DNA of 64,000 nucleotides, from assembly GCA_965243415.1 (NCBI GenBank), contig OZ251549.1, forward strand, positions 2,555,632 to 2,619,631, read 5' to 3'. Positions 30,961 to 60,901 of this stretch are shown in pieces. The stretch comes from Candidatus Marinacidobacterium sp. (lineage in GTDB: Bacteria; Acidobacteriota; Vicinamibacteria; Marinacidobacterales; Marinacidobacteraceae). The position numbers and the translations under genes are program-made. Below the pieces are notes generated by a model, which saw only the letters and a list, made by a program, of their open reading frames with translations, had not been told where the DNA came from and did no database searches. Positions within the stretch are counted from its first letter, which is position 1, and every line of letters begins with the position of its first letter.

Positions 30961-31001
30961 GGGAGAAGCATACCAGTATTCCATATGTTGTTACGATCCA
31001 C
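29896..31001. mobile_element. IS630-family insertion sequence (~1.1 kb) with ~16-bp terminal inverted repeats and TA target duplication inside a CTAG site
   Basis: Left end is TA|GTGGACCGTAGC; right end is GTTACGATCCAC|TA, with flanks ...gatgc / gccggggg that rebuild a CTAG target. It contains one intact transposase ORF. Confidence 0.75.
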
Positions 31002-39916: not shown

Positions 39917-40541
39917 TTATTCGGACCCCGGCTCGCCGACCGTCCCCCGGATGACCTCCCGCGCCCGCCGAACGAACGCCCGCAACGAGTGGTCGTTCCT
40001 CCCGGCCCGGTGCAGATCCATCTCGGCCACGACCTTCGGCGCGAACCCGCTGTCGTCGGAGCGACCGACCGGGTAGCGGCCCTTCCGAAGCGCATCCGCC
40101 AGGAGTTTCTGGTAGTGGCCGCGCTCGCACTTCTCCTGCCCGAGAGTCGGAGCGTGCCCAGGACCGGGCCGAGGCTCGAGGAGTCCGCCGGATACCACCG
40201 CTCGATATGCGGATCGGGACACGCCGCGACCAGCCGGTCGGCGAACGCCGCACCCGTGGTGTCCTCGATCACCTGGCGAGAGGCCGAGAAGGTGGAGCAG
40301 TTGCCGTCGATCGCCACGACGACCAGGTCCGGGGTGGGCTCGTCGGCCGGGACCGTAGATCGGGTCGTCCGGTACATCCCGTACTCGCGGAGCGCGACGC
40401 CGTGGCCACCACGCGCAGAGATCACCCTGATCCGCGCCGCTGCCCCCGCCTCTTCGCACAGGCCATGGAGCATCGGCGTGAGGAACAGTTGGTGCGCGCG
40501 GTCCTCGGCGAACACGACCACCTGGAGGCGGTTACTCGTTG
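39917..40541 (-). pseudogene. DUF4276-like protein, copy A, disrupted by a 1-nt frameshift near 40150 (or sequencing error in a G run)
   Basis: N-terminal frame gives VVVFAEDRAHQLFLTPMLHGLCEE...DLVVVAIDGNCSTF...AACPDPHIERWYPADSSSLGPVLG. The C-terminal part continues in another frame: TLGQEKCERGHYQKLLADALRKG...FAPKVVAEMDLHRAGRNDHSLRAFVRRAREVIRG. Both halves align to the intact paralog at 42505..43125. Start is GTG ~40541 or ATG 40587. Confidence 0.6.
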
Positions 40542-41794: not shown

Positions 41795-42267
41795 GGCAGT
41801 GCTTCAGGCATTGGATTCGCCGGATGGTAGCGCCGGCCCGGCCGGCGGAGGCGATGGCCGACTTCGGCGGGCGGCCGGCGACTCGGGGAGGCCTGGCTGC
41901 CGTGCGCCTCGGCAGCGATGGCGACAGCGGCCCGCTGTCGGGTACGCCGGGGAGGTGCGCGGCGCCACGGGAGCGGGAGATCCGGAGGCGCGTCCGGCCC
42001 TCCGCAATGGGCCGGCGGAGGCCCGAATCACGGGGCGACCCGTCGGCAAGTGCCATCGGCGTGCTCGGACCGCTACGGAGGGTCCCGAGGTGGCGCCGGC
42101 GGGGAACCTCGGACCGCAGGGCGCAGCGGTCGGAAACCGGGTGGCCGAGGTGGACCTTTGCCGCGGCGAGTCGACGCAGAGGGGCCATCACCCGGAGCGA
42201 CCGCTCGATGCGGCGAGTTCCGGCGCCGGAAGGCTGGGGCGCGATCCCGGGTACGGCCGGAGCGATA

Positions 42268-42440
42268 ACGAACGGCGTGGAAATCCACCTCCCCATCGCC
42301 CCGCGCAAACCCCGTGACCTCCGCCACGAACTCCTCGAAGTGATCGTGGAGATCGATTGCCTCGTCCGTGGGATGGACGAGGAATGGGAATCGCCCCCGA
42401 GTCCGACGACGCGGTCACCACCGAAAACCGCTGCCGGCCG
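42268..42440 (+). pseudogene. degenerate duplicated remnant of the 3' end of the S9 peptidase gene
   Basis: Translates NGVEIHLPIAPRKPRDLRHELLEVIVEIDCLVRGMDEEWESPP. The peptidase C-terminus at 39605-39800 is NGVETHLYIAPREPHGWRELRHELFKVNVEIDWFERHVRGMDYEWETAP. It marks the left edge of the duplicated module. Confidence 0.6.
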
Positions 42441-42504
42441 CCCGACCACTCCGGCCGGCGCCTCCGCGCCGGCCGGCCCGAATGAGCCGGGGTCGCTGAC
42501 CGGT

Positions 42505-43125
42505 TCAGTCCGCCGACAGCGATCGCTGCCGGAGGAACTTCTTTCTCAGGTCCGTGAGGAACGCTCCGAGCGACCGGCAGTTCTTGCCCGCCCGGTACAG
42601 CCGCATCGCCGCCACGACTTCGGGTGCGAACTCCCGTCCGTGCAGCAGCGTCGGCGGATGGCCGGCGCCCCGGATCGTGTCGGCCAGGATCTTCTTGTAG
42701 TGGGCTCGCTCGCACTTCTGACGACCGAGGGAAGGCGCCCTGCCGACGACGGCGGCGAACGACTGCGGATCGGCCATGAGCCATCTCTCGATGTGGGGGT
42801 CCGGGCACGCCGCGACCAACCGGGGCGCGAAGGCCGGCAGCACGATCTCCTCGATACTCTGCTTCGTCTTGGCGAAGGTCGCACAGTTCCCGTCGAGCGC
42901 GACGACCACGAGGTCGAACGGCGCCACCGCCGCCGGGAACAACGCTGCCGTCTCCTGCCACGCCCGGAACTGGCTGAGCGCCCGCGGGCGCCCGCCCTCC
43001 GCCGACAGGATCTGCGTGGCGACCGACACCTCCAGCGATTCCGCGACCCGACCCACCAGCGGAACCAGGAATGCGGCGTGGGCGGAGTCTTCGGCGAAGA
43101 CGGCGACCCGAATCGGATCAGGCAT
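42505..43125 (-). CDS. DUF4276-like protein, copy B (intact, 206 aa)
   Basis: MPDPIRVAVFAEDSAHAAFLVPLV...DLVVVALDGNCATF...AACPDPHIERWLMADP...GRQKCERAHYKKILADTIRG...FAPEVVAAMRLYRAGKNCRSLGAFLTDLRK. The conserved acidic N-terminus, DGNC and CPDPHIERW blocks are shared with copy A. Family name is from recollection of DUF4276 and not verified. Confidence 0.65.
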   Translation of the reverse strand: MPDPIRVAVFAEDSAHAAFLVPLVGRVAESLEVSVATQILSAEGGRPRALSQFRAWQETAALFPAAVAPFDLVVVALDGNCATFAKTKQSIEEIVLPAFAPRLVAACPDPHIERWLMADPQSFAAVVGRAPSLGRQKCERAHYKKILADTIRGAGHPPTLLHGREFAPEVVAAMRLYRAGKNCRSLGAFLTDLRKKFLRQRSLSAD

Positions 43126-43255
43126 CGAGGATTCCCCGGAGGATCAGGGATTCGACGACCCCCTGCTCTCCCCGGTCCGCCAGCGCGCCGGCGATCCGCT
43201 CGTCCTCGAACAGGGCGTCCGGAGGATCGAACGGCTTGACGGTCGTTCGATCGTC

Positions 43256-44368
43256 CTACGACCCGACCTGGAGGAGCCGTACGCCGTCGGGGTCGTCACT
43301 CCGGCGTTTCGCCCGGACGATCCGGCCCACGAAGAGCGGAGAATGCGTGGTGACGATGACCTGGCGGTCCTGCTGCTCGCCGAACGACAGGAGGAGGTCG
43401 GCGATCTGCTCCAGCCGACGCGGATGCACTCCGTTCTCCGGTTCCTCGATGCCGACGAGTCCCTCCTCGATCCACGGATTCCTGGTGAGGGCGCACAGCG
43501 CGAGGATCCGCAGTGTCCCTTCGGACACGATCCGGGAGGAGTACTCGATCCCGTCCTGCCGGAAGAGGAGATCGAGGTTTCCTCTCCGTTCGTTCAGGGC
43601 CAGGGTGAAGGCGTCCATGCCGGGTACGAGTTGCCGGAGCATTCGGACGACGGAGGCGTAGTACTTCGGCTTCGCGGCATGCATTCGGTACAGATACGAA
43701 CCGATGAATTCGCCGTGAACGCCGATGTCGAGGAAGTCCCCCGGAAACTGTTCGGCCCGCATACGGAACTGCGGTTCGACGGCATAGATTCGCCAGCGCT
43801 CGAACTCCCTGCGCAAGCGATCCAGTGCTTCGTATCCGGCGCCGGAGTAGCGGCGATCGGACAGGATCGAACCGCGGGCGCCGACGGATTCCCGTTTGGG
43901 TTCGCGCGATCCCTTCCGGCGTATGAGGATCTGACCATCGCGCGTCCGGATGCTGGGGAAACGGTCGGGGTCGGGCCGCGTCTCTGCCAGGTATTCGTCG
44001 GCGACTCCGATGGCGCCGATACGCGGGTCCAGCCGTGCAGAGAGGCGATACTCGTACGCGGTGGCACTCGTCGAGATGGCGGCTTCCAGGGTGAAGGACG
44101 GGCTGGCCCGGTCCGCTTTCAGAAGCGCGGGAAGACCCTCGTCCGGATAGGAAAAACACTCGGCGGGGTGGCCGCGGACCGGGGAATTCGCACCCAACGC
44201 TTCCTGGAGGGTGGGGGCGCGACTCATGACGGACAACACCTGGGCCGCCTCCAGGAGGTTGCTCTTCCCGGCGGCGTTCGGCCCGAAGAGGACCGTGAGG
44301 TGTCTTCCGGGCTCGATCGTGACCTCGCGGAGCGACTTGAAGCCGCGGACGGTCAGGCGTTCGAGCAT
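43256..44368 (-). CDS. AAA_21/AAA_15-type ABC ATPase, copy B
   Basis: Internal ATG gives MLERLTVRGFKSLREVTIEPGRHLTVLFGPNAAGKSNLLEAA, then SEGTLRILAL, IEEPENGVHP and VTTHSP. Roughly 50-60% identical to copy A. The ORF-track N-terminal 40 aa are low-complexity. Confidence 0.8.
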   Translation of the reverse strand: MLERLTVRGFKSLREVTIEPGRHLTVLFGPNAAGKSNLLEAAQVLSVMSRAPTLQEALGANSPVRGHPAECFSYPDEGLPALLKADRASPSFTLEAAISTSATAYEYRLSARLDPRIGAIGVADEYLAETRPDPDRFPSIRTRDGQILIRRKGSREPKRESVGARGSILSDRRYSGAGYEALDRLRREFERWRIYAVEPQFRMRAEQFPGDFLDIGVHGEFIGSYLYRMHAAKPKYYASVVRMLRQLVPGMDAFTLALNERRGNLDLLFRQDGIEYSSRIVSEGTLRILALCALTRNPWIEEGLVGIEEPENGVHPRRLEQIADLLLSFGEQQDRQVIVTTHSPLFVGRIVRAKRRSDDPDGVRLLQVGS

Positions 44369-44405
44369 CGGGCAGCGCGTTCTCGACCGCAGGGTAGCCC
44401 GGGGG

Positions 44406-45581
44406 TCAGCGAGTGGTGGCGGGCGAAGCCAAGGCGGTTTCGGCGAGGCGGCGGGCGGCTTCGGGGAGGCCCTGGCCGCTCTGGACATTCGCGGTCAGCG
44501 CCACGGCGAGGCCGCGTTCGGGGAGGCGGAGGAGGTGGGTGGTGCCGCCGGTGGCGCCGCCGGAGTGGGAGATCCAGAGGCCCGCCGCGTCCTCGGCGAT
44601 CCGCCAGCCGAGACCGTACTCACTCAGCGTGCCGTCGGCGAGTTCCATCGGGGTCGTCATCCGGCCGTGGGTTTCGGCGGAGATGATCGCCCCGGCGTCC
44701 AGCGCCAGCGCGAACCGCACCAGGTCCGGCGCGGTGGAGATCATGCCGCCGCCGGCCCACTTGATGGAGAGGTCGGCGAAGGGCGCGTTCCGCACCCAGG
44801 GGGCGTCCTCCGACTTCACATACTGGCGGACGCGGTTCGGCACGATGTCGCCCTGGTGTTCGAGGTAGGTCGCCTCCATCCCGGAGGGCCCCCAGAGGTT
44901 GTCCTGCAGGTAGTCGTCGAAGGACTGCCCGGCGACGGACTCCACCATTCCGGCGAGCAGGTTGTAGGCGTAGGTCGAGTAGGAATACTGCGTTCCCGGC
45001 TCGAAGAGCAGCGGGTCGTCGCGGAAGATGGCGGTGCCCGCTTCCACGGTGTCGAAGTGGTCTTTCAGGTCGAACTCACCCTCGTTGTAGTGGCGGATCC
45101 CGGAGGTATGCGTCATCAGGTGGCGCACGGTGACCGGGTATTCCTTCTCCGGGAACGACGGGAAGTACTCCTGGATCGTCCGGTCTATGTCGAGGACCCC
45201 CTGTTCGGCGAGGTGCATGATCGCGGTGGCGGCGATGGGCTTCGAGATGGAGGCGATCCGGTACACGCTGTCCGCGGTCGCCGGGACGCCGTTCTCGATG
45301 TCGGCGAGACCGGAGCCGCCGCTCCAGGTCAGCACGCCGTCCACCGCCACCGCGGCGGAGAGGCCCGGGCTGCCGGCGGCGTCGCGCGCTTCCTCGACGA
45401 TGGCGGCGAACTCCAGGTCGCGCTGGGCGGTCGGATCCGGCGCCGAACAGCCGACGACGCCCGCCGCGAAGAACGCCGCGAACGCGACCGACGGGAGGGA
45501 GAACGAGGCGAAGCCCCTCGTGGCGGCAGCGCGGGGAACGGCAGTGCGGGAAACGACGGGGCGAATCGGGAGAGCGGTCAT
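44406..45581 (-). CDS. serine hydrolase (class C beta-lactamase/esterase-like) lipoprotein
   Basis: Lipoprotein signal ...FFAAGVVGCSAP. SISK (S-x-x-K) in YRIASISKPIAATAI, a YSN-like YSTYAYN and HSGGATGG. Start ATG verified. ATGA overlap with the upstream dipeptidase stop. Confidence 0.85.
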   Translation of the reverse strand: MTALPIRPVVSRTAVPRAAATRGFASFSLPSVAFAAFFAAGVVGCSAPDPTAQRDLEFAAIVEEARDAAGSPGLSAAVAVDGVLTWSGGSGLADIENGVPATADSVYRIASISKPIAATAIMHLAEQGVLDIDRTIQEYFPSFPEKEYPVTVRHLMTHTSGIRHYNEGEFDLKDHFDTVEAGTAIFRDDPLLFEPGTQYSYSTYAYNLLAGMVESVAGQSFDDYLQDNLWGPSGMEATYLEHQGDIVPNRVRQYVKSEDAPWVRNAPFADLSIKWAGGGMISTAPDLVRFALALDAGAIISAETHGRMTTPMELADGTLSEYGLGWRIAEDAAGLWISHSGGATGGTTHLLRLPERGLAVALTANVQSGQGLPEAARRLAETALASPATTR

Positions 45582-49209: not shown

Positions 49210-50945
49210 CTCTGCCCTCCGGGGAACGACAGTGGGAACAGCGAGTGTATCCGCCCCGGCATCGGCCCCGCATCGGCCCCCGCCCCGGCCCCGTTGTCCG
49301 CCTCTTCCCCGGCGCTCCCGAACCCGTCCCCGGCGCGTCCCCCGGGCCGGTTCCCCCGCCTCCGCCCCGTCGCGCGGCCCCTCCCCGGCAGCCGCGCCGC
49401 ACCTCCACGACCTGCCCGGCGTCCCCGCAACCGCGTCTTCCCCGGCGCTCCCGAACCCGTCCCCGGCGCGTCCTGCCGGGCCGGATCCCGCTCCCGACCC
49501 GCCGCGCGCCGCGACTCCTGACAGCGATGTCGCACCCCGACGACGAGACCCGGCCCCCGCCGCCCGGCCCCCCGACGACGACGCCCGGCGTCCCGGCAAC
49601 GGCTTTCCTCCCGGCGCTCCCGAACGCGGCCCGAACACTTCCTCACCGGGCCGGATTCCGCTCCCGACCCGCCGCCCGGCCCCTCCCCGGCTCCCGCCGC
49701 ACCTCCGCCGCCAGCGCCCCCTCCGCCGCCAGCGCCCCCGCCGCCGTCAGCGCCCCCGATACCACCCGGCGCGCCGGCGTCCGCCGGTTCCCTCCCAACT
49801 CCCGGCTCACCGCCGTGCGGCTCATCCCCGTCTCCGGGTAGTGGCGGCCCGGAACCCGCCGCTCACCTCCGACCCTCTCGCCCTCTCGGCCGGGAACGAA
49901 TGGACTGCACCCCTCGCCCCCCCGGATCGGAACCTCCGCCGCGCCGGCCCCGAGCCGAAGAGCGGGAAATCTCCACTGCCGGGCGACACTCCGCAACCGC
50001 CTCCTTCCCCGGCGCTCCCGAACCCGTCCCCGGCGCGTCCTCCCGGCCCGGGTCCCCGTTCCCGACCGCCGCCCGCGCCAACCGCCGAACAGCCGCGTCG
50101 CACCCCGAAGACGAGGCCCCGGCGCCCGACGACGCCCGGTCCCCCGACGACGACGCCCCGCGCCCGCTGCCCCGCTGTCCCGGCTGTCGTCCGGGCACCC
50201 GCCCGCCCCGACTCCCGACCCCGGCCCTACCGCCGCCGGGAGTCGAGCGGGGGCCGGTCGCCGAGGACCCCGCTCAGGGACGAAATCCGACCCCCGCGCT
50301 GCATCGAGTGCCGCTGTCGCCGCCTCCACCTTGCGCCGGTTCCCGGGCATCCCGGCCCCCCGCCGCGCTGCCCCCGCTACCGCGCCACTCCCGGAACTGC
50401 GCCGGCCCTCGCCGACTTCCGGCGCCGGCGCTCGTCCGGACCCCGGCGGCCCCGACTCCCGCCGCCGGCGCCCGCCCCGACTCCGCGGCCCTGACTCGCC
50501 GCCCCGACTCCCCACCCCGGCCCTACCGCCGCGCGGCGATCGGGCGGGGGCCGGTCGCCGGGAACGCGGCTCAGGGACGAAGTCCGACCCCCATGCCGCT
50601 CCGAGTTCCGCTGTCGCCGCCTCCACACTCCGCCGGTTCCCGGGCATCCCGCCCGCCGCCGCGCCACCCCGCCGGTCGCGCCACCCCCGCGGCCACGCTG
50701 CCCCATCGCCGAGCCGGCCCCCGTCGTCGCGCCGCTCCCGCCGGTCGTTCCACCTCCGCTGCCGCGCCACCCCGCCGGTCGCGCCACTCCCGTCATCGCG
50801 CCATCTCCGCCGCCACCCCGCCCCCCGGCGCCGCCCGATGACATCCGGCGCCCGACGATGACGCCCGACGCTTCCCGGCGCCCGGCGCCCCGCCCCGACT
50901 CGACGGCCCTGACGCCCGGCGCTGGCCCCGCCCGACCGATCCCGA
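49210..50945. repeat. 1.7-kb GC-rich (~80%) non-coding block with at least five dispersed/tandem copies of a ~130-bp element (TTCCCCGGCGCTCCCGAACCCGTCCCCGGCGCGTCC...CCGACCCGCCGC) and related sub-repeats
   Basis: Copies start near 49306, 49438, 49600, 50000, 50330 and 50630. The only ORFs are repetitive Pro/Arg/Gly artefacts on both strands (e.g. the GMPGNRR(S/K)VEAATA repeats). Confidence 0.7.
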
Positions 50946-50948
50946 CCC

Positions 50949-52388
50949 CTACCGCCGGTAGTCGAGCGGCGGGGGCCGGTCGCCGAGGAGCGGCTCGTAC
51001 ACGAAATCCGGCCCCTGCGCCGCCTCGAGTTCCGCCTGCGCCGCCTCGATCCGCGCCGGATCCCGGAACAGGTCGGCGGCCGTCCGCGCCAGCACCTCCG
51101 CCGCCCGATGCATCCCCTTCAGCCCGATGCTCATCCCCCCGGCGGCCACCGCCTGCCAACTGTGCGCCGGGGTCCCCGGAACCCAGGTCGCCGTCCGGAA
51201 CTGCGCCGTCGGCACCACCCAACTCACATCCGCCACATCGGTCGAACCGCCGGCCGGCTTCCGCTCCCACTCGGCCACCTCCTCCTGCGACCCGATCGGC
51301 CGCGGCCGGGCCAGCGACTCCTGGATCTCCTCGGCGAACGCCCGCTCCTCGTCGGTGTAGGCGAACCCCCCGACCGCCTGCAGGTTCTCGTGGAGCAGCC
51401 GCCCGATCGTCTCGTTCGGCAGGAGGTTGTAGAGCCCGTGGATGATCTCGTGCTCGACCTCGGTCCCGGTGCCCAGCGCCGCGCCCTCCGCCGCCTTCAG
51501 GATGCGCTCCCAGTTCGACCGCGCCACCTCCACCGACGGGTGCCGGTTGTAGTAATAGACCTCGGCGAAGTTCGGCACCACATTCGGCGCCTCGCCGCCC
51601 CGCGTGATCACATAGTGGATGCGGCTCCGCTCGTGGACATGCTCCCGCATCAGGTTCACCAGGAAGTTCATCGCCTCCACCCCGTCGAGCGCCGACCGCC
51701 CCTGGTCCGGCGCCCCGGCGGCGTGCGCCGAAACCCCCCGGAAGCGGAACTTGGCCGACAGGTTCGCCAGCGAGTCCCCCGGACTGGCGTCGTTCCGGTC
51801 GCCCGGGTGCCAGGCCAGCACCGCGTCCACCTCGGCGAACAGCCCCTCGCGCACCAGGTACACCTTCCCGGCGCCGCCTTCCTCCGCCGGCGTCCCGTAC
51901 ACCCGGATCCGCCCCTCGCTCCCGGTGCGTTCCAGCCAGTCCTTCGCCGCCAGTCCGGCCGCCACCGAAGCGGTCCCGAAGAGGTGGTGGCCGCAGGCGT
52001 GCCCGGCGCCGACCCCCTCGCGCTCCTCCGGCCGGGGCGCCGCCGTTTGGCTGATGCCGGGCAGGGCGTCGAACTCGGCCAGGATCCCGACCACCGGGCC
52101 GCCGGAACCCCACTCCGCCACGAACGCCGTCGGCATCCCGGCGACCCCGGCCTCCACCTCGAACCCGGCGGCGCGCAACTGCTCCTGCAGCAGGCCGGAA
52201 CTCTTCTCCTCCTGGTAACCGACCTCGGCCCACTCCCAGATGCGGAGCGCCACCTCGTCGAAGTCGGTGCGCTGCGCCCCGAGGAAGTCGCCGATCAGCG
52301 CGCGGTCGTCGCCGTCCTGGGCCGCGGCCGCTGCCGGAGCGAGAACGAGGGCCGTCAGGCCGAGGGAAAGGAGCGCGGATCGGAACAC
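50949..52388 (-). CDS. M20D-family amidohydrolase (AbgB/hippurate-hydrolase-like) with signal peptide
   Basis: GTG start with SD GGAGG at 7 nt gives VFRSALLSLGLTALVLAPAAAAAQDG. VGAGHACGHHLFGTASVAAG is the M20D metal-binding signature. Confidence 0.85.
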   Translation of the reverse strand: MFRSALLSLGLTALVLAPAAAAAQDGDDRALIGDFLGAQRTDFDEVALRIWEWAEVGYQEEKSSGLLQEQLRAAGFEVEAGVAGMPTAFVAEWGSGGPVVGILAEFDALPGISQTAAPRPEEREGVGAGHACGHHLFGTASVAAGLAAKDWLERTGSEGRIRVYGTPAEEGGAGKVYLVREGLFAEVDAVLAWHPGDRNDASPGDSLANLSAKFRFRGVSAHAAGAPDQGRSALDGVEAMNFLVNLMREHVHERSRIHYVITRGGEAPNVVPNFAEVYYYNRHPSVEVARSNWERILKAAEGAALGTGTEVEHEIIHGLYNLLPNETIGRLLHENLQAVGGFAYTDEERAFAEEIQESLARPRPIGSQEEVAEWERKPAGGSTDVADVSWVVPTAQFRTATWVPGTPAHSWQAVAAGGMSIGLKGMHRAAEVLARTAADLFRDPARIEAAQAELEAAQGPDFVYEPLLGDRPPPLDYRR

Positions 52389-52612
52389 GGGCAGCCTCCG
52401 GTCGGGGAGTCGTCGGGGGAGGGGAAAAACGGGTTTCGGAGTGTAATCGGGGCAGGGTCCGGCCCGGCGCGTCTTCGTTCGCTCGCCGGGGACCGGGCAA
52501 ACCTCCCTCCCGGCCCTGCGGCGTTCCGCCCCCGCCGGCGGCATCGTTCCCCCCGACTGGCCTTCGCCTTGCAAGAAATCCCTCCGCCGACAAAGGCGAA
52601 GGAGGCGACTCC

Positions 52613-53464
52613 ATGAAGAGATTCGCATCGTTCCTCATCCTCGTGATCGCCGCGGCGGCGCCCGCCGCAGCACTGGCGCAGGACCCGCCCCCCCCGAAGG
52701 GGGACGCCGGGAAGGGCTGGCGCCTCGAAGTGTTCGGCAGCCCGGCCTGGAACCTGCTGAGCGCTTCGGCCGAGGACGCGGCCACCTTCGATGTGGTCCC
52801 GGCCTCGCAGTCCGTCTCCGGCTCGCGGCTCTCCGCCGACTTCGGCTGGGGCGCCGGCGTCCGCGTCGGACGGGGCCCCTGGGGCCTCGAAGCCGCGTAC
52901 CGCCGCATCGCCAGCCAGGACCTGACCCCCGGCCACCTGATCCGGGACACCCGCGCCCAGCCGGAAAACACCAACGGGCCGGTCCTCACCATCCTGCCTA
53001 CGGAGGTCCCGAGTTCCCGGGGCGACCTCTGGTTCGGTCAGGTCTTCCGCGAGTTCCGCGCTTCCCGCCGGTCCGCCGTGTCGCTCGGGGTCGGCGGCGG
53101 CTATCTGCGGGTGACCGACTCCTTCACCGAGAGCCTGCTGACCCAGGACTGGTCGTCCTACCTCTCGGACGACCTCCAGAAGATAGATTTCGGCGCCGCC
53201 CGCAACAGCCCGGTGTACGGCGCCTCGCTGGCGCTCACCACGCACCTCGGCCGCTTCCTCGTCCGTCCCCGCCTCGATGTGATCCTGCCGGTCCGCAACC
53301 TGACCACCACGCTCGACCTGAGCGGCGTCACTCCGGCCTGGGTGGCGACCGAACGCGACGGCAGCACGACCGAAGGCCTCTCGGAGCGCTGGACCGGCGC
53401 CACCACCACCAGCGTCCGCCCGACCCTGTTCTTGGTCTCGATCGAGATCGGCTTCGGGAACTGA
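52613..53464 (+). CDS. outer-membrane beta-barrel protein (paralog 1)
   Basis: SD AAGGAGG; signal peptide MKRFASFLILVIAAAAPAAALAQ; alternating beta-strand pattern; ends ...LFLVSIEIGFGN. Confidence 0.65.
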   Translation: MKRFASFLILVIAAAAPAAALAQDPPPPKGDAGKGWRLEVFGSPAWNLLSASAEDAATFDVVPASQSVSGSRLSADFGWGAGVRVGRGPWGLEAAYRRIASQDLTPGHLIRDTRAQPENTNGPVLTILPTEVPSSRGDLWFGQVFREFRASRRSAVSLGVGGGYLRVTDSFTESLLTQDWSSYLSDDLQKIDFGAARNSPVYGASLALTTHLGRFLVRPRLDVILPVRNLTTTLDLSGVTPAWVATERDGSTTEGLSERWTGATTTSVRPTLFLVSIEIGFGN

Positions 53465-53484
53465 CACGAAGGGGAAGAAACCCC

Positions 53485-54381
53485 ATGAAGCACCCGGCCA
53501 CCTTCCTCACGGCCCCCTTCCTCACCGCCGCCCTCCTCGCGCTCCCGGCCGCCGCCGCCGCGCAGCCCGGCCCCGCGCCCGACGAGTGGCGGTTCGAGGT
53601 CTTCGCCAGCCCCGGCTGGAGCGGGCTCCGCACCGCGGCGGAAGACGGCTGGGCGCTGACCGTCGCCGGCCCCGGCGCCGCGGCCGGCCCCGAAGACTGG
53701 ACGCACCGCGCCAGCGGTTCCCGGCTCTCCGCCGGTTTCGGCTGGGGCGGCGGCGCGCGCCTCTCCCGGGGCCCCTGGGGGATCGAGGCCGCCTACCGCC
53801 AGATCCGCAGCCGCGACCTCACCCCCTCCCACCTGCTCCTCGACACCGGCGCCTACTCGGGAATACTCGACTCGATCGCGGAGGAGGGCGGAGTCGAGTC
53901 CGTCGCCGTCGATCCGGCCGCCGGCGCCGACCCGCCGCTGCCGCGTTCCCGCGGCGACCTCTTCTTCGGCCAGGTCTTCCGCAGTTTCCGACTGCGCCCG
54001 GGCGCGGTCCTCTCCGTCGGGCTCGGCGGCGGCCACCTGCGGGTCACCGACGACCGCACCGACGAACTGCTGGCCCGCGACTGGGGGGTGTTGCCGGTGC
54101 CCGACTTCTTCGAGGGCTGGTTCGAGATCGACACCGGCTACACCGCCCGCCGCAGCCGCTTCGTCTATGGCGGCTCGGTGGCGCTCACGACGGAAGTCGG
54201 ACGCTTCCTGATCCGGCCGCGCCTCGATGTGGTGGTCCCCACCGGATCGCTCACGACCGCGTTCGACTACGGCCTCGAAGTGCGGGATCCGGAAACGACC
54301 CAGCGCCTCGAAGGCGCCTACACCAGCAGCGTCGATCCGATCCTCTTCCTGATGTCCGTCGAGATCGGCTTCCACCACTGA
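53485..54381 (+). CDS. outer-membrane beta-barrel protein (paralog 2)
   Basis: Signal peptide MKHPATFLTAPFLTAALLALPAAAAAQ. About 45% identical to paralog 1 (WRFEVFASPGW..., GSRLSAGFGWGGG, GPWGIEAAYRQI, RGDLFFGQVFR, LFLMSVEIGF). Confidence 0.65.
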   Translation: MKHPATFLTAPFLTAALLALPAAAAAQPGPAPDEWRFEVFASPGWSGLRTAAEDGWALTVAGPGAAAGPEDWTHRASGSRLSAGFGWGGGARLSRGPWGIEAAYRQIRSRDLTPSHLLLDTGAYSGILDSIAEEGGVESVAVDPAAGADPPLPRSRGDLFFGQVFRSFRLRPGAVLSVGLGGGHLRVTDDRTDELLARDWGVLPVPDFFEGWFEIDTGYTARRSRFVYGGSVALTTEVGRFLIRPRLDVVVPTGSLTTAFDYGLEVRDPETTQRLEGAYTSSVDPILFLMSVEIGFHH

Positions 54382-54506
54382 CGCTCCGGTCGGCGCGGCG
54401 CCCGGTCCACCGCGCCGACATCCCCGGACGGGGCCATCCTCCCGGCCCGCGCCGGCCACCGCGAAGGGCCGAGGACAGGACTTCTATCGCTCACAAAACG
54501 CCCATT

Positions 54507-54537: not shown

Positions 54538-55698
54538 ATGCGCTGGATCTGGCAGCGGCCGGAGTGGCCCCGGTTCCGTTGGGAAGCGTCGGCGATCACG
54601 CCCCTGGAGACCCGCTACCGACTGGCAGCCGAGCGCTCCCGGGGCGCCCGTTGGCATCTCGACGAGGCCGACCGCGCCGAACTCCGGGTCGAGTGGCTGA
54701 CGGACGAGGCGGTCGAGACCTCGGCGATCGAGGGGGAGACGCTCGACCGCGACTCGGTGCGATCCTCCCTCCGGAACCACTTCGGCCTGGCAGCCGACCG
54801 CCCGGGTTCCACCCCGGCCGAGACCGGCGCCGCCGACCTGATGGCCGCCCTCTACCGCGACTTCGCCCGGCCGCTGGACTTCGAGATGCTGTTCGACTGG
54901 CATCGCCGCCTCCTCCGCTGGCGCCCGGACCTGGCGGTCGTCGGAGCGTTCCGGGGCGGCCCGGAGCCGATGCGCGTCGTCTCCTCGGCGCCGCCCCCCT
55001 TCGAGGTCCACTACGAAGCGCCCCCGTCCGAGCGCGTCCCGGCGGAGATGGAGCGATTCGTGGCCGGGTACGAGCGCTCCGCGAGAGAAGGCCTCCCGCC
55101 GCTGACCTGGGCGGGCCTCGCCCACCTCGACTTCGTCTTCATCCACCCCTTCGAGGACGGGAACGGCCGCCTCGCCCGCGCCCTCTCCGAAAAGGCCCTC
55201 GCCCGCTCCTCGGGACAGCCGAGCCTGATCGCCCTCTCCCGGACGATCTCCCGCCGCCGCCGCGCCTACTACGACGCCCTGGAACGGGCGAACCGCTCGC
55301 TGGACTTCACCGACTGGCTCCGCTTCTTCGGCGAGACGGTGCTGGCAGCGCAGCGGTGGAGCGAGCGCCGGCTGATCCGCACCCTCGACCAGGCCCGGAT
55401 GTTCCGCCGACTCGGCGACCGCCTGAACGACCGCCAGCGGAAGGCGCTCCGCCGCCTCTTCCGGGCGGAACCGGAAGGATTCGAGGGCGGCCTCAGCGCC
55501 GGCAACTACCGCCGCATCACCGGCGCCATCCCGCCCACGGCGACCCGCGACCTGGCCGACCTCGTGGCGCTCGGCGCCCTCCGCCGCACCGGCGCCCGCC
55601 GCCACACCCGCTACTTCCTCGACCTGCCCCCGTTCCCGGACGAACCGGGTGCCGGCCCTCTCGGCGAGGGCCAGACCGGGGCCGCCGCGCCGTCGTGA
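54538..55698 (+). CDS. Fic/DOC family protein (AMPylation-type fido domain)
   Basis: HPFEDGNGRLAR matches the Fic motif HPFx(D/E)GNGR. Confidence 0.85.
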   Translation: MRWIWQRPEWPRFRWEASAITPLETRYRLAAERSRGARWHLDEADRAELRVEWLTDEAVETSAIEGETLDRDSVRSSLRNHFGLAADRPGSTPAETGAADLMAALYRDFARPLDFEMLFDWHRRLLRWRPDLAVVGAFRGGPEPMRVVSSAPPPFEVHYEAPPSERVPAEMERFVAGYERSAREGLPPLTWAGLAHLDFVFIHPFEDGNGRLARALSEKALARSSGQPSLIALSRTISRRRRAYYDALERANRSLDFTDWLRFFGETVLAAQRWSERRLIRTLDQARMFRRLGDRLNDRQRKALRRLFRAEPEGFEGGLSAGNYRRITGAIPPTATRDLADLVALGALRRTGARRHTRYFLDLPPFPDEPGAGPLGEGQTGAAAPS

Positions 55699-55915
55699 CG
55701 CTCCGCGCCCCCGACCTTCCCGCCGGACCAGGCGCGGAAGGCCAGGCGGCGCCCCTCGAGGGCGTGGCCCTCGCAATTCCGTTGTGTGCGACCGGTGCCG
55801 GAACGGCAGTTGAACGACGGAGGCGCATGAAGTACTTTGCAATTTCACCTGCAGGTCGCGGACGCCGATGGTGGCGACCGGCAAGCGGTCTCGACCCAAC
55901 GGAGGAACCCGACCC

Positions 55916-56206
55916 ATGAAGAAGACCAAGACACTCCCCGCCACTCCGCCGGTCACGCCGGAAGAGGCGACGGGCTCGAACTGGCTCCGCCTCCGGAAGC
56001 GTCCCGTGGCGAACCTCACGGAGGACCAGATGGAGGATGCCGCCGGCGGCCATCCGCACCCGGCCACCTGCGAGCCGACCTGCCCGCAGACCTGCTGCCC
56101 GACCTGCCCGGAGACCTGCGGCCGGGGCTGCCCGGAGCCGAGCGACCGCTACTCCTGCTCGCCCACCTGCCCCGTCGAGGACACCTGCGACCTGGATATC
56201 TGCTAG
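55916..56206 (+). CDS. Cys/Thr/Pro-rich peptide with Bacteroidetes-type double-glycine leader (candidate RiPP precursor), paralog 1
   Basis: SD GGAGG-N10-ATG. MKKTKTLPATPPVTPEEATGSNWLRLRKRPVANLTEDQMEDAAGG | HPHPATCEPTCPQTCCPTCPETCGRGCPEPSDRYSCSPTCPVEDTCDLDIC. The leader fits the GG-Bacteroidales pattern (MKKxxK...L.L.K..IANL.D.EM....GG). The core has 11 Cys. Confidence 0.6.
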   Translation: MKKTKTLPATPPVTPEEATGSNWLRLRKRPVANLTEDQMEDAAGGHPHPATCEPTCPQTCCPTCPETCGRGCPEPSDRYSCSPTCPVEDTCDLDIC

Positions 56207-56207
56207 T

Positions 56208-56228
56208 CCCGGCATCTAAGCGCCGGGG
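56208..56228 (+). terminator. GC hairpin CCCGGC-atctaagc-GCCGGG just after peptide 1 stop
   Basis: Seen directly; no U-tract. Confidence 0.3.
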
Positions 56229-56552
56229 CAGCGGGCCATCGCCCGCGTCGGCAGACATGGCATCGCTCTGTTCGGGGTGGGCAGGTCTGTTCTGTACATT
56301 GCAGTCGGTCGGCCCGAGAGCCATCGGCGACACTGACGACGTGGCCGGCATGCGGTTACGGAGGGCGTCTTTGATCCTTGCCCGCCCGCCACGGGTTACG
56401 GGAGCGCCACGGTCTTGGCCGTGGACCCCGGCGCCTTGATGCCGGACGCTGTATCGCGGGCGGGCGGTTTATCGTCGGTCGGGAGACCGAGGGCCTCTTT
56501 TCCGGGCTCGTGGCGGCCCCACCGGACCGGGAAGCGGGAGTGACTGGCAGCG

Positions 56553-56669
56553 GTGCTCGACGAGGTGCGGCGGCTGCGGGAGGCGCACCCCAGCCTGGGC
56601 AAGCGGAAGATCCGTCCTGTCCTGTGGCGGTTCTGCGTGGAGCGGGTTTCGTGCGCTCCGTGGTGGTGA
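56553..56669 (+). pseudogene. IS481/IS3-like transposase fragment (remnant)
   Basis: VLDEVRRLREAHPSLGKRKIRPVLWRFCVERVSCAPWW*; the HP(S/T)xGxRKI block is characteristic of IS481-family integrase-type transposases. No intact ORF. Confidence 0.5.
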
Positions 56670-56921
56670 CCATGGGGCGGCTGACCGCCGACGCCGGCGG
56701 CCTGCGGGCGATTCTGCCCAACGGGCATCCTCGGTCCGGGTTGAGGTCATGCGTCGGGCGGCTTGGATCTTGGGTGCTGCCCGCGAGACTCCGGGCCACC
56801 GACGATCGCCGGAATCGCAGTTGACCGAGATGGGCCGGTTCGGGTAAAAGTCACTTGATTTCGGCACTGACAGTCCCGGCTGGTCGGCGCCCCCTCACGA
56901 TCCTCAAGGAGATCTGCAGAC

Positions 56922-57218
56922 ATGAAGAAGGTCAAGACCCCGCTGGTCCCTACGGCCAAGGTGGTGAACTCGAACTCCCTCCGCATCAGGCGGCGCTCGG
57001 TGGCGAACCTCACGGAGAACCAGATGGGGGACGCCGCCGGCGGTCACCCGCACCACACGTGCGAGCCGACCTGCCCGGCCACCTGCTGCCCCACCTGCCC
57101 GGACACGTGCCCGCGCGGCTGCCCGGTGGTGGAGCCCCCGAGCGCCGGTGACACCTGCCGCGGCAGCACCTGCGACACCTGCGACACCTGCATCAGCTGC
57201 TACGACGCCTGCGAGTAG
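56922..57218 (+). CDS. Cys/Thr/Pro-rich peptide with double-glycine leader (candidate RiPP precursor), paralog 2
   Basis: SD AAGGAGA-N9-ATG. MKKVKTPLVPTAKVVNSNSLRIRRRSVANLTENQMGDAAGG | HPHHTCEPTCPATCCPTCPDTCPRGCPVVEPPSAGDTCRGSTCDTCDTCISCYDACE. Followed by a GGCGCCT...AGGCGCC hairpin. Confidence 0.6.
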   Translation: MKKVKTPLVPTAKVVNSNSLRIRRRSVANLTENQMGDAAGGHPHHTCEPTCPATCCPTCPDTCPRGCPVVEPPSAGDTCRGSTCDTCDTCISCYDACE

Positions 57219-57720
57219 CTATCCGGTAGCCTCACCGGCGCCTCGCGTTGCAGGCGAAGGCGCCGGGTGGTTGTGCCCCCCGCGACTCGTCGTTCGGACG
57301 GAGTACTCCCCGGGAGCTCGTCAGCGTCGACGCAGCGGGCATCCGTACGCCTCGGAGAGTCATTTGGCTCTCTCAAGGAAGTGAGCCAGTCCGGGCACCG
57401 CATCCCTTTCCTCCGCCCTGCGTGCTCGAATGTTCGGGCTGCCATGGCTCGCTTTCCGCAGGGTCGGGGGTCGGGGTGGGAACGCAGCCCGTTGAACCAC
57501 AGTCGATCAGCCTGTGCTGTGGATCTCGGGCAACACAGAGAAGAAGCTTCATTCTGCTGTCCGGCATCTTGCGGTAACCGAAAACTGGGCCTCGTTGGGA
57601 TTCTTGGCCGCATGTCACGGTCCGGTGTTCCCCGCGGGTCACGCGCATCCAGCGCGACCACCATCCGAGGAGAGTGCCTGGACGACCTCTCCGGCGGTGC
57701 CTCCGCCACGGTACAAGCGT

Positions 57721-57750
57721 GTGGCGCTCACCCCGTAGGGTGAGCGCCAC
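57721..57750. terminator. perfect 13-bp-stem hairpin GTGGCGCTCACCC-cgta-GGGTGAGCGCCAC, ~45 nt beyond the convergent TonB-receptor stop
   Basis: Seen directly in line 57721. Confidence 0.55.
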
Positions 57751-57793
57751 GACTGCGGCTTGCCGGGCCTCTGATCGAGCCCGCGTCTTGGGT

Positions 57794-60700
57794 TTAGAAG
57801 CGCAGGGTGCCGCGCAGCAGCATGGTCCGGGCGTTCTGGCGACTCCGCAACTCGAGGAAGTTGGGCAAGAAAGTTCGGTTTGCTCCGCTGTAAGTGAACT
57901 GGTTGTGGTTCGCGGCATCGAGCAGATTGAAGACCTGCACTTGGAATTCGAACTGGGCTGGGCCGAGATCGAAGATCCGGCCCAAGGACAGCCCCACGGT
58001 GTGTACCGTTGGAGCCTGTACCTGGAGTTCTCCACGATCCTGACCGACGATGCGATACCGAGTCGAGAGTGGGTTGGTCTTGTCGTTGTTGGCCTTGCCG
58101 GGACCGTACTGCGTGACCTGCGGATCGTCGGCGTCCAACTGTTCAATCGGCGGACCGGTCCACGGGCCGGCGTTGGCCGTGTAACTGATCGCGGTCGTGA
58201 TGTCGAACGGAAGCAGGTAACTCAACCCGCCGCGGATCGAGTACTGTCGCCAAGTCGGCGCATACGACAGATTCGAGTGCGCGCGCAGGGTGTTGAAGTC
58301 GTTGTTGCCTCGTGGCATGTAGAGCGCCTTGTTCGAATCGAATTTCTCCGGGGAGATGAATCGCGCCGGATCTTTGGGATTCCAGTCGCCTGCGTAATGC
58401 TGCCACTGGCGACTGATGTTCAGGGTGGCCGACATCTTCTCGGTCCGGCGGGTGCTGGTGACCTCGATGGCGGTATAGACCAACTTGCTCCACGAATTGT
58501 TCGTCTGCTGCCGAACCTCCCCGTGGTCGAGACCGACTTGGCCGAACTGGAACTGACCGCGCGGAACCGTCGCAGGTGCCTCGGAAGGCCAGGAGCCGTT
58601 CTGCTCGAGGAGCGCGTAGTTGTCCGTGTAGCGCCGATGGATGAGCGCTACATCCATGGCGAACTGCCCCCGGAACTGTCGCCGGATGCCGGCGATGAAT
58701 TCGTCCACGAAGGGTTGTCCGATGTCGGGATCGAAAAGAGTGGAAATCGGCAGGCCGGCGACCGGAGGGTTGTAGACATCGTGGTCCGCTTCGCCATCCC
58801 CGTCGTGGTCGTATTCCGTGTAGGAGCCGGCGCTGGCGCCTCCATGTATGCGGGTGATCGCGTCTCGACCGTTCATCTGCTCATGGACCCGGCCATAACT
58901 GCCGCGAAGGATGTTGCGGCCATCCTCGGTTATCTGGTACGCGAAACCGGCTCGTGGTCCGATGGCGATGGTGTTCATACGCTCGAAATCGAGAATGCCG
59001 TCGTAACGCCTGACGAAGTCGGCCCGAACGCCGAGATTCAAGGTGAGGCGGTCGAACGGCTTCCAAGCATCCTGGAGGTAGATGCCGATGTCCCGATCGT
59101 CGCCGTCGATGGTCTCGAGCGAGTCGATGGGACCGTTGGCATCCCCGGTCCGGGTGCGGCGGAACCAACGGGTGCCGGCGACCTGGGTGAGGTCATCGGT
59201 GGGGTTTCCCGAAGCGTCGAGCATCACATGATTCTCGCTGCGCCAACCGTTGACCATGGTGTAGGTGCTGGTGCTCGGATATGCGTTCCAGGGTGCCGCA
59301 TAGACACCGAATCCAATTTCGTGGGACCCGGCGACATCGTCGAGATAATGCGTGAGATCGGCCCGGAACAACATGAGGCGGGCCGGCCGATCCGCGCCGC
59401 CGCCGGTGCCGGCGACGGCGAGGCGGCCGCCATCGGAAGTGGTGCCGGAGGAATTGACGGAATAACCGTCGTAGATCGTCACATAGAGGGGAAGCGAATC
59501 TATCTGCGGTTGGAGGTCGAGCGGCACTTCGGACGCCTTGTCGTTGTAGGACAGGGTGAACTGGCCGGTCGTGTTCGCGCCGAAAACGGAGGTCAACTTG
59601 GCGCCGTAGAGATTGCCGCCGGTCTGTCCCGTGTACCGCGGCGCGAGATCGTATTCGCGATTGGAGGTGTTTTCGGTCGTATCGCGCTGGTAATAGAGAT
59701 TCAATTCGTGACTGGGGTTCACCTGTGCGCTGATCTTGACATAGGGTTGGTGGCTCCGGGTGGTGTTCAGGAACGGAGAATAGGTCGGCGCGGTGCCGAG
59801 GCCGCTGCCGAGGGGAATGCCGGAGAGAGCGGTCAGGCGCTCGACATCGGAACCGCCGCGGCTGATGCGGGCGGCGAGGTCTGCGTAACGGTACGAGGCG
59901 AAGAACCAGGCGCGATCACGCATGAGGGGCCCGCCGAAGGAGAAGTCGGCTTGGCGCACCTGGTGGGCGGTCGGTGTTCCGATGGAGTTGGAGGCCGATT
60001 CCGGCGGCTCGTAAACCCCGAGGCTGGCGAAGTTCGCTTTTTCGGAGGCGAAGGGATCGAATCCGGGGGGTACCTCGTTGTCGCCGAACCAGCCGCCGAG
60101 GCCGTCGGCATCGCCGGTGCCCCAGTCGAAGGACTGGAGATCGTAGGAGGCGGAAGCGGTCAGGTCGTTGCCGCCGCTACGCGTCACCACATTGATGATG
60201 AGGCCGGTCCCCATGGGGTCCTTAGCCTCGGCGCCGCCGGTCTTGACGGACATGTCTTCCATCATGTCGGCGTTCATCCCGACATGAGTTACCTGGGAGT
60301 CCGTATAGCCGGCCGCCGCCATACCCTCCAGTTGGATGACATGGGAGAAGTGCTCCGTGCCGTGGCCGAAATAGACCATGCGACCGGAGCCATCGTCGAA
60401 GGGCCGGGCGTTGACGCCGGGTGTCATCTCGAGGAAATCGCTCCAATTCCCGCGGGCCTGGATGGGCAGGTCCCGCTGGAGGTCGCCTTCGATGGTCAGG
60501 ATGTTTCCGGGCCGAGAGATTTCGAGCATCGGCGTCTCGGCGGTCACGGTGACCGTTTCCTGGACGCTGCTGATGGAGAGCACCGGGTCCACGCCGATGT
60601 TCGTGCTGGCCCGGACCTGGATTCCCTCCTGGCGGTAAGTGGCGAAGCCCGACAGCGCGGCTTCGACGCTGTACTCCCCGACGGGAAGGTTGAGCAACCG

Positions 60701-60901
60701 GTATGCCCCCTGACTGTCGGTGACCGTCGTAGCCGGGGCGATCAGGGCGTCGCTCACGGCGGTGACGCTCACTCCGGGAAGGACCGCGCCGGAGTCGTCG
60801 GTCACGGTGCCTCGAATGCTGGAATCGCCGGCCTGTCCGAACGCGCTGGCCGGAAGGGCCAACAGGGTCGCAAGAACCAGCGAGGAAGTGGACTTCCGCA
60901 T
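57794..60901 (-). CDS. TonB-dependent receptor with N-terminal CarboxypepD_reg-like domain (1035 aa)
   Basis: SD AGGAGA-N4-ATG; signal MRKSTSSLVLATLLALPASAFGQ; GTVTDDSGAVLPGVSVTAV...GEYSVEAALSGF (CarboxypepD_reg); plug; beta-barrel ending ...RGTLRF (terminal Phe). Length is divisible by 3 from the ORF-track end. Confidence 0.85.
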   Translation of the reverse strand: MRKSTSSLVLATLLALPASAFGQAGDSSIRGTVTDDSGAVLPGVSVTAVSDALIAPATTVTDSQGAYRLLNLPVGEYSVEAALSGFATYRQEGIQVRASTNIGVDPVLSISSVQETVTVTAETPMLEISRPGNILTIEGDLQRDLPIQARGNWSDFLEMTPGVNARPFDDGSGRMVYFGHGTEHFSHVIQLEGMAAAGYTDSQVTHVGMNADMMEDMSVKTGGAEAKDPMGTGLIINVVTRSGGNDLTASASYDLQSFDWGTGDADGLGGWFGDNEVPPGFDPFASEKANFASLGVYEPPESASNSIGTPTAHQVRQADFSFGGPLMRDRAWFFASYRYADLAARISRGGSDVERLTALSGIPLGSGLGTAPTYSPFLNTTRSHQPYVKISAQVNPSHELNLYYQRDTTENTSNREYDLAPRYTGQTGGNLYGAKLTSVFGANTTGQFTLSYNDKASEVPLDLQPQIDSLPLYVTIYDGYSVNSSGTTSDGGRLAVAGTGGGADRPARLMLFRADLTHYLDDVAGSHEIGFGVYAAPWNAYPSTSTYTMVNGWRSENHVMLDASGNPTDDLTQVAGTRWFRRTRTGDANGPIDSLETIDGDDRDIGIYLQDAWKPFDRLTLNLGVRADFVRRYDGILDFERMNTIAIGPRAGFAYQITEDGRNILRGSYGRVHEQMNGRDAITRIHGGASAGSYTEYDHDGDGEADHDVYNPPVAGLPISTLFDPDIGQPFVDEFIAGIRRQFRGQFAMDVALIHRRYTDNYALLEQNGSWPSEAPATVPRGQFQFGQVGLDHGEVRQQTNNSWSKLVYTAIEVTSTRRTEKMSATLNISRQWQHYAGDWNPKDPARFISPEKFDSNKALYMPRGNNDFNTLRAHSNLSYAPTWRQYSIRGGLSYLLPFDITTAISYTANAGPWTGPPIEQLDADDPQVTQYGPGKANNDKTNPLSTRYRIVGQDRGELQVQAPTVHTVGLSLGRIFDLGPAQFEFQVQVFNLLDAANHNQFTYSGANRTFLPNFLELRSRQNARTMLLRGTLRF

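Follow-up and report, generated by a model that had tools for sequence, protein, structure and literature searches.

Two dispersed class I lanthipeptide precursor genes of a high-G+C bacterium, probably matured in trans

The precursor gene pair

The stretch analysed here, called the window below, is a 64,000-nucleotide segment of contig OZ251549.1 from Candidatus Marinacidobacterium sp. (positions 2,555,632 to 2,619,631; G+C content 72%), and all coordinates without a locus name refer to it. It carries two small genes on the forward strand, A and B, encoding Cys- and Thr-rich peptides with a double-glycine (GG) leader. An earlier note, made from the sequence alone, had described them as two paralogous candidate precursors of peptides made by the ribosome and modified after translation (RiPPs). 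Both open reading frames (ORFs) are indeed present, and their products are 67% identical across the first 73 residues, which is far beyond chance (E 4e-30). No third copy was detected in the 64 kb by regular expression or tblastn. We argue here that A and B are probably class I lanthipeptide precursor (LanA) genes served by enzymes encoded elsewhere.

Gene A (55916-56206, + strand) encodes 96 aa from the MKK start that is used family-wide; the ATG at 55868 given in the earlier note lies in frame upstream of it and is not conserved among orthologues. The leader (55916-56050) is 45 aa long, extends from MKKTKT to LRLRKRPVANLTEDQMEDAAGG and carries an LxLxKx5L motif ahead of the GG cleavage site. 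The core and stop codon (56051-56206) specify 51 aa, HPHPATCEPTCPQTCCPTCPETC followed by a variable C-terminal part ending in DTCDLDIC. Gene B (56922-57218, + strand, 98 aa) has the same layout, with a 41-aa leader (56922-57044) extending from MKKVKT to LRIRRRSVANLTENQMGDAAGG and a core and stop codon (57045-57218) specifying 57 aa, HPHHTCEPTCPATCCPTCPDTC and then a variable part ending in TCDTCISCYDACE. Both leaders finish in VANLTE(D/N)QM(E/G)DAAGG, as had been claimed. Both cores are made largely of Thr-Cys dipeptides: we counted 11 Cys and 10 Ser/Thr in A, 13 Cys and 12 Ser/Thr in B, where 11-12 Cys had been announced.

Upstream of gene A, a promoter-like element (55810-55838, + strand) is composed of TTGAAC (55810-55815), a 17-nt spacer and TACTTT (55833-55838) in an AT-rich island. 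That of gene B (56821-56850, + strand) comprises TTGACC (56821-56826), a 17-18-nt spacer and (G)TAAAAG (56844-56850). Among the orthologues at the other loci examined (cited by L numbers), L006A, L007A and L007B keep GCAGTTGA(A/C)-N17 with a -10-like hexamer upstream, and L006B, the orthologue of gene B, keeps TTGACC ... GTACAAG; the GCAGTTGA(A/C)C box, the 17-18-nt spacer, the -10-like hexamer and the AT-rich island are conserved in the orthologue upstream regions. A scan for consensus sigma-70 promoters found none, the boxes of both genes scoring below its threshold, and we infer that they are probably promoter-like elements. Shine-Dalgarno motifs on the same strand are located 9 nt before each ATG, GGAGGA (55901-55906) for A, where orthologues have a GGAG-type motif in the same place, and AGGAGA (56907-56912) for B.

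Directly 3' of the gene A stop codon lie two G+C-rich hairpins (56206-56229 and 56231-56246, + strand) in a region folding clearly better than shuffled sequence (-32.7 kcal/mol, z = -3.6). A G+C-rich hairpin after the gene B stop codon (57233-57269, + strand) is a putative terminator, and the fold of 57216-57285 is weak by comparison with shuffling (-34.6 kcal/mol, z = -1.7). The consensus scan returned a single weak terminator-like site on the gene A side (56267-56285), at a frequency expected by chance. Thus, of the Shine-Dalgarno sequence and terminator hairpin attributed earlier to each gene, the Shine-Dalgarno sequences and the hairpins themselves are present, but T tracts are absent from all of them. 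An Rfam search of 55600-57800 gave no match.

An L1a-type leader and a fixed Thr-Cys core

Among the NCBIfam models, the only one matched by A and B was NF038153 (lant_leader_L1a), a class I lanthipeptide leader. Residues 24-45 of A scored 23.2 bits (E 5.7e-5), above the curated cut-off of 22 bits, and 78 of 100 family members scanned singly also matched (E <= 0.01; best 1.4e-10). A leader motif LxLxKx5L...GG has been described for class I LanAs and co-occurs with C39 proteases (Walker et al. 2020, PMC7268733). The A leader fits this motif as L24-R-L26-R-K28-RPVAN-L34 ... A-G-G45, and the B leader is a conservative variant, L-R-I-R-R-x5-L ... GG. Hydrophobic residues occupy positions -4, -7, -12 and -15 before the GG, as in double-glycine leaders. 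These features support the reading of both peptides as RiPP precursors with a GG leader. The leader type first proposed, that of radical SAM (rSAM)/SPASM substrates, was not recovered: TIGR04149 matched neither A nor B in NCBIfam even at E <= 10, and none of the 100 members at E <= 0.01. Nif11 and NHLP leader models likewise gave no NCBIfam match for A, B or the 100 members, and neither A nor B has a Pfam match.

Relatives numbered 38 in a protein search, and a profile search gave 99 clusters at 90% identity. Family members measure 88-121 aa without exception, ENA or Logan metagenome assemblies are the source of almost all of them, and their cores contain a median of 12 Cys and 10 Ser/Thr. When 1.84 billion representatives were searched exhaustively with a profile, 27 proteins were returned at E <= 1e-10, followed by a tail of ~450 short Bacteroidetes-type LanA peptides, several with similar TCPxTC repeat cores. 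The Cys-dense core is therefore an extreme of a known precursor superfamily and not a separate class. This answers the suggestion of an undescribed Cys-rich peptide class: the leader family is a curated one, many Bacteroidetes-type LanAs have similar TCxxTC cores, and A and B represent an uncharacterised family within the known lanthipeptide class. No relatives were found by protein pattern in representative genomes or in a JGI metagenome scan. A degenerate core DNA pattern searched in 185,579 representative genomes matched once (L005 2269-2301), on a 3.5 kb contig of a metagenome-assembled genome (MAG) labelled 'uncultured Piscinibacter sp.' and likely mis-binned, so that the family appears poorly represented in reference genomes.

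The family alignment consists of a conserved leader, a near-invariant N-terminal core (N-core) (H-P-H)-T-C-E-P-T-C-P-x-T-C-C-P-T-C-P-x-T-C and a variable Cys/Thr-rich tail. Ser/Thr and Cys are both present in the cores, the Thr and Cys positions of the N-core are invariant or nearly so throughout the family, and HPH follows the cleavage site in 84 of the 111 members. Nei-Gojobori dN/dS ratios are noisy since they rest on a few dozen sites; most comparisons with dS above 0.2 gave 0.5-0.8 for the leader and 0.26-0.69 for the N-core, and the C-terminal core had about 1 or more. The C-termini nevertheless fall into types: ...TCDTC(I/V)(S/T)CYDACE is common to B, P0012 and P0013 (= L006B), whereas A-type peptides end in ...DTCDxDIC. 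Such a pairing of a stable leader and scaffold with a tail that diversifies is what active multi-precursor RiPP systems display.

Lanthipeptide biosynthesis genes outside the window

LanA genes usually, though not obligatorily, adjoin LanB and LanC genes. Pfam analysis of 41 ORFs, picked by GC3 frame bias and covering essentially the whole 64 kb, detected no LanB, LanC, LanM, rSAM, YcaO or C39-ABC protein in the window. Likewise, tblastn of the window with the LanB, LanC, peptidase-containing ABC transporter (PCAT), membrane-fusion, EreA-like and VWFA proteins of the clusters described below revealed no maturase, the only match being a distant TonB-dependent receptor (TBDR) paralogue. LanB, LanC and PCAT genes are thus absent for 55.9 kb upstream and 6.8 kb downstream of the pair, the limits of the window, and within these limits the precursor genes are not clustered with LanB or LanC. 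The absence of a maturase reported earlier is therefore confirmed, and A and B are orphans here.

Exact-sequence look-ups placed A and B together with three paralogues, P0022, P0034 and P0061, on one NCBI contig of 4,475,995 bp. A search with the LanB of L003 led to a further LanB (P0383, 1110 aa), for which an NCBI contig of 4,475,995 bp is likewise recorded. P0383 is full length (Lant_dehydr_N 3-649 of 649, Lant_dehydr_C 1-255 of 255) and 95% identical to the LanB that adjoins an exact copy of P0034 in L004. On the metagenome contigs L003 and L004, exact P0034 sits within a complete class I cluster whose genes are, in order, three of EreA-like type on the opposite strand, then LanA, TBDR, LanA (P0034), LanC, LanC, VWFA, LanA, a full-length LanB and an HlyD-like gene; L003 shares its sample with L001, the copy that is 97% identical to the window locus. 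In the related clusters L010, L011 and L016, genes for a 782 aa exporter (Peptidase_C39 + ABC_membrane + ABC_tran) and for membrane-fusion proteins come next.

The two LanC paralogues are 71% identical to each other and both keep AHG, WCYG and CHG at the places where a solved LanC-like protein has its conserved motifs. The clusters examined have separate LanB and LanC and not LanM, and genes for both enzymes are found on the flanks of family members in each of the three independent clusters. In the precomputed annotation of the 16 related loci there is no rSAM Pfam match. Among named sequences, the nearest LanB relatives belong to MAGs labelled Gemmatimonadota (56% identity) and Acidobacteria (55%). 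Finally, the last 22 leader residues of A and B are identical to those of the cluster precursor L003a at 21 and 18 positions, respectively, as expected if the same LanB and PCAT serve orphan and cluster precursors. One option left by the earlier note, an orphan precursor pair for a maturase encoded elsewhere, is thus supported by P0383, the P0034 cluster and the leader identity. The note would have been refuted by a genome lacking any maturase or leader peptidase, and this is not what was observed: LanB P0383 is recorded for the contig of A and B, and related clusters encode a C39-ABC exporter.

Several other genes accompany these clusters. A TBDR-like gene (CarboxypepD_reg + OMP_b-brl_4) is present in each (L003 6401-9325, L010 438-3365, L016 6970-9882), followed after ~110-120 bp, which hold no promoter-like box, by a precursor gene on the same strand. 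The three TBDRs are 76-78% identical, and a 40% paralogue (L012 6767-9604) precedes an orphan precursor. A TBDR within a lanthipeptide operon is unusual; it might act in export, re-uptake or immunity. One to four tandem erythromycin-esterase-like genes (PF05139) on the opposite strand (L003 440-4875, L006 804-7048, L015 617-5005, L016 3611-5005) adjoin precursors at LanBC clusters and at the L006 orphan pair; the window has none. In L003/L004, a 633 aa protein matching TIGR03436 acidobact_VWFA with 150 bits is encoded between LanC2 and the third precursor (L003 12873-14774), a gene missing from the otherwise collinear L010/L011 and L016 clusters. Sample names of the form PANK22-1_SAMN... presumably point to a sponge-microbiome study, and contigs that are nearly identical occur in runs SRR18249244 and SRR18249442.

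Conservation and history of the orphan site

The immediate neighbours had been given as a Fic protein upstream and a convergent TBDR, and Pfam confirmed both: a DUF4172+Fic gene (54538-55698) precedes gene A, and the TBDR gene (57794-60901) is convergent to gene B. They belong to a syntenic backbone, beta-lactamase/M19/PGA_cap/M20/283 aa/297 aa/Fic/[precursors]/TBDR/GWxTD-TPR, found in L001, L006 and L007-L009. A functional tie between the precursor pair and the convergent TBDR was considered and rejected, as this TBDR is a gene of the backbone; it is ~28% identical to the cluster TBDRs over one third of its length.

Each of these five loci has two intact precursor genes between Fic and TBDR, the second having been missed by the gene caller in L007-L009. 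Identity across the loci is 72-73% for the TBDR protein and 89-97% for the DNA of the Fic/gene A region. L001 is a 97%-identical copy of the window locus and, like L002, carries an exact copy of the gene B leader. L006 has an A-type/B-type pair in which the orthologues of A and B are P0007 and P0013, respectively, while L007-L009 combine an A-type precursor with a second one that has a different C-terminal core. In L002, a 246 aa 'gene' upstream of B was discarded as a spurious call over intergenic DNA that is 99.3% identical to the window. Two further differences concern neighbouring genes. Compared with the window (about 50900-54400), L001 1-6568 contains the M20 peptidase and 283 aa genes twice, with ORFs of 88 aa and 335 aa between the copies; the Pfam survey of the window contains no second M20 peptidase gene. 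This repeat could have arisen through a real tandem duplication or insertion, or could be an artefact of the assembly. In L007 and L009, the 335 aa ORF is found again, there placed between precursors and TBDR.

Between A and B lies a decayed fragment of an IS481-family transposase gene (56392-56722, + strand), reported before as a dead transposase fragment (HPSLGKRKI). HMM searches with it were negative and its identification, which agrees with that report, rests on the intact copy in L010 (4104-5174; 356 aa with HTH_32, LZ_Tnp_IS481 and rve matches). With this gene, 56392-56718 shares 81% identity in blastn over 336 bp, and 56440-56722 aligns in tblastn as three frame-shifted pieces covering residues 31-124 of 356 with 72-80% protein identity. 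The fragment is thus homologous to the helix-turn-helix (HTH)/leucine-zipper N-terminal part of an IS481 transposase. It differs from an intact element in that only ~330 bp, with the HTH region, a stop codon and frameshifts, are left, without the rve catalytic domain; the element ends were not identified.

The insertion sequence (IS) had been suggested to have mediated the duplication of the precursor gene. The orthologous loci speak against this. The 562 bp from the end of gene A to the start of the conserved upstream region of B, remnant included, exist only in the window, L001 and L002; the same intergenic space of L006-L009 has no IS remnant. Since all four of these loci have a pair at the same site, the duplication is older than the IS insertion.

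Independently of the duplication, the same IS481 family adjoins precursor genes at four lanthipeptide loci: intact in L010 (3794-5297), and as remnants just upstream of L003a in L003/L004 (L003 5127-5282), in L015/L016 (L016 5939-6533) and in the window (56392-56722). The precursor downstream of the element in L010 and L003 has a TTGAC -35-like box that coincides in part with the 3' end of the transposase gene, at its stop codon, and the IS end may therefore contribute an outward promoter. A role of IS481 in scattering precursor cassettes is possible. Other family members are orphans as well. P0024 follows a TBDR gene and has no LanBC within the locus sequence, and P0073 is separated by more than 10 kb from any such genes (L012, L013/L014), which makes dispersed precursors a trait of the family. 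Downstream of P0073 and on the same strand (L013 10947-12075, L014 1251-2379) are genes for a 2OG-Fe(II) oxygenase (PF13640) and CutA1; the oxygenase is possibly a tailoring enzyme.

These data bear on a reading in which A and B are silent relics, cassettes scattered by IS activity that have lost expression or processing. The distance of at least 6.8 kb to any maturase, the dead IS481 fragment between the genes, dN/dS values that approach 1 for the closest pairs and for the C-terminal core, and the lack of a consensus sigma-70 promoter or T-tract terminator would all fit it. Nevertheless, the ORFs are intact in every orthologue at a site whose flanks have diverged to the extent given above, the invariant Cys and Thr of the N-core and the GG site are retained, the -35/-10-like boxes and Shine-Dalgarno motifs are conserved, and the type-specific ends (DTCDxDIC or CYDACE) are kept. 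A conserved leader with a hypervariable core is moreover usual in active multi-precursor RiPPs such as prochlorosins. We consider the loss of function unlikely.

Unlikely alternatives without lanthionine rings

Another possibility is that A and B are exported by a C39-ABC transporter without lanthionines, as disulfide-rich GG-leader bacteriocins or as Cys/His metal-binding peptides. A GG leader alone suffices for export by a PCAT, HPH is frequent after the cleavage site, Cys exceeds Ser/Thr by one in both cores, and CutA1 and CusB/CzcB-like proteins are encoded near some members, with TBDRs adjacent. However, the CusB/CzcB matches are weak or faint and concern the barrel-sandwich domain common to all membrane-fusion proteins. 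The leader fits the LanB-type class I model and not a class II bacteriocin leader. Each core has 8-10 Thr/Ser-Cys dipeptides in which Thr is as invariant as Cys, something that neither metal binding nor disulfides require, and LanC and LanB genes enclose cluster precursors that have this same core. Export of unmodified peptides thus seems rather improbable. A third reading, in which A and B would be rSAM/SPASM substrates (with a TIGR04149-type GG leader or as Cxxx-repeat targets) carrying thioether or other rSAM cross-links, is close to refuted: it draws on the C-x-x-x periodicity of the core and on the few weak Cxxx-model matches discussed next, but no rSAM-target model recognises A or B even at E <= 10, TIGR04149 and rSAM genes were not encountered in the searches above, and LanB and LanC flank the members in the three independent clusters.

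Some observations count against a class I lanthipeptide assignment. The B leader scores only 19.0 bits with NF038153 (E 0.0012), under the cut-off of 22. TIGR04117 (Syntroph_Cxxx, a Cxxx-repeat rSAM target) was weakly matched by 5 of the 100 members (best E 2e-4) and some relatives carry a weak precomputed PF27846 (tSAM_targ_Cxxx_rpt) match, although such matches are as expected from repetitive Cys composition. The presence of A, B and P0383 on one contig is deduced from the matching size of 4,475,995 bp and source, and metagenome contigs, near-identical or related, are the only places where LanC and the C39-ABC exporter were seen. Lastly, the closest pairs have dN/dS near 1, a value from a few dozen sites.

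Weighing these points, and judging from sequence data, we hold it probable, with good confidence, that A and B are dispersed (orphan) class I LanA genes of the L1a leader type, matured in trans. This assignment is carried by the leader-family homology, the maturase-free window, the LanB and paralogues recorded on the contig, the architecture of the P0034 cluster, the synteny and the intact ORFs.

Proposed maturation and comparison with known systems

Class I systems employ a glutamyl-tRNA-dependent LanB, a zinc-dependent LanC and a C39 PCAT. In the pathway that we propose, each gene would be transcribed from its own promoter and translated from a canonical Shine-Dalgarno sequence to give a prepeptide of ~97 aa, two steps supported by the promoter-like boxes and ribosome-binding motifs. 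The LanB of the cluster elsewhere on the chromosome would bind the leader in trans, glutamylate Ser and Thr of the core and eliminate glutamate to form dehydroalanine and dehydrobutyrine (Dhb). The two LanC cyclases would then add Cys thiols, forming dense (methyl)lanthionine rings, and the C39-peptidase ABC exporter would cut after Gly-Gly and export a polycyclic peptide of 51 or 57 residues starting with HPH. The LanB, LanC and PCAT steps follow established class I chemistry and the observed gene content. The N-terminal TCEPTCPxTCCPTCPxTC module may serve as a fixed ring scaffold; the T-C-x-P-T-C-P-x-T-C spacing would allow either consecutive rings of four residues from Cys(i) to Dhb(i+3) or overlapping ones from Dhb(i) to Cys(i+5). 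The hypervariable C-terminal part would diversify the products, so that one enzyme set could serve several precursors.

The nearest system is that of the L1a class I LanAs (NF038153), the family of Walker et al. 2020 with pinensin, PedA15 of Pedobacter lusitanus and the viridisins of Thalassomonas viridans. A and B share with them a leader that fits the HMM and the motif and ends in Gly-Gly, separate LanB/LanC with a C39-peptidase ABC exporter, several precursors per cluster and (T/S)Cxx(T/S)C-rich cores, the latter as in many distant matches of the profile search. They differ in their host, an uncultured bacterium of 72% G+C that does not belong to the Bacteroidota, and in the longer leaders of their family (about 41-49 aa). 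Further differences are the fixed N-core TCEPTCPxTCCPTCPxTC preceded by HPH, and a cluster that has two LanC paralogues, starts with a TBDR gene and leaves precursors spread over several loci. As for the Cxxx-repeat rSAM targets (TIGR04117, PF27846), they are also short peptides with Cys at every fourth core residue and a few weak matches in the family, but A and B are unmatched, the leader differs and no rSAM gene occurs in the contexts examined; this resemblance is compositional.

The prochlorosins, class II lanthipeptides of marine cyanobacteria in which ProcM is accompanied by up to 29 ProcA precursors, offer a parallel in organisation. Both systems combine a conserved leader, a hypervariable core and a GG cleavage site, with many precursors per genome, several of them far from the synthetase and processed in trans. 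Prochlorosins rely on a single bifunctional LanM and Nif11-type leaders, in contrast to the LanB, LanC and L1a leader of the A/B family, and their core is free to vary throughout, whereas the A/B family keeps the first ~20 core residues. Tentatively, and as a speculation that we regard as doubtful, the family could be a class I counterpart of the prochlorosin strategy: one LanB and two LanCs acting on at least 5-7 scattered precursors with a fixed Thr-Cys ladder and diversifying C-terminal cores, in uncultured, probably sponge-associated high-G+C bacteria, to yield dense methyllanthionine rings not seen so far, with a dedicated TBDR-like protein perhaps for export or re-uptake.

Other features of the window

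The remaining Pfam content of the window comprises housekeeping functions (Lon, PBP1a, MurJ, GAPDH, PGK), peptidases, two transposases, toxin-antitoxin genes, AAA_21/DUF4276 genes, two TBDRs in all and a GWxTD/TPR protein, besides Fic. At 40532-44494, two paralogous AAA_21/AAA_15 (AbiEii-like, OLD-type) ATPase genes surround a DUF4276 gene, whose match is weak and below the Pfam cut-off; this region looks like a small defence-type island. A few kb upstream of it are the transposase genes, an IS630-type DDE_3 (29893-30990) and a DDE_Tnp_1 (34994-36784). At 7102-7572 lies a PIN-domain gene whose upstream end (7479-7572) is shared with an ORF that weakly matches a ribbon-helix-helix model, and the region 7102-8141 is probably a VapBC-type toxin-antitoxin pair.

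Implications

A Cys-rich gene pair that appeared to be without a maturase can be explained by known logic, as lanthipeptide precursors served in trans, and no new class of biology is opened by it. The data point to an uncharacterised lanthipeptide family of ~100 sequence clusters, almost all metagenomic, with unusually Cys/Thr-dense cores and dispersed genes. For genome mining, this implies that cluster-based tools would miss most class I precursors of such a genome. For natural-product chemistry, the fixed TC ladder with its hypervariable tail offers a candidate scaffold whose ring topology has yet to be described.

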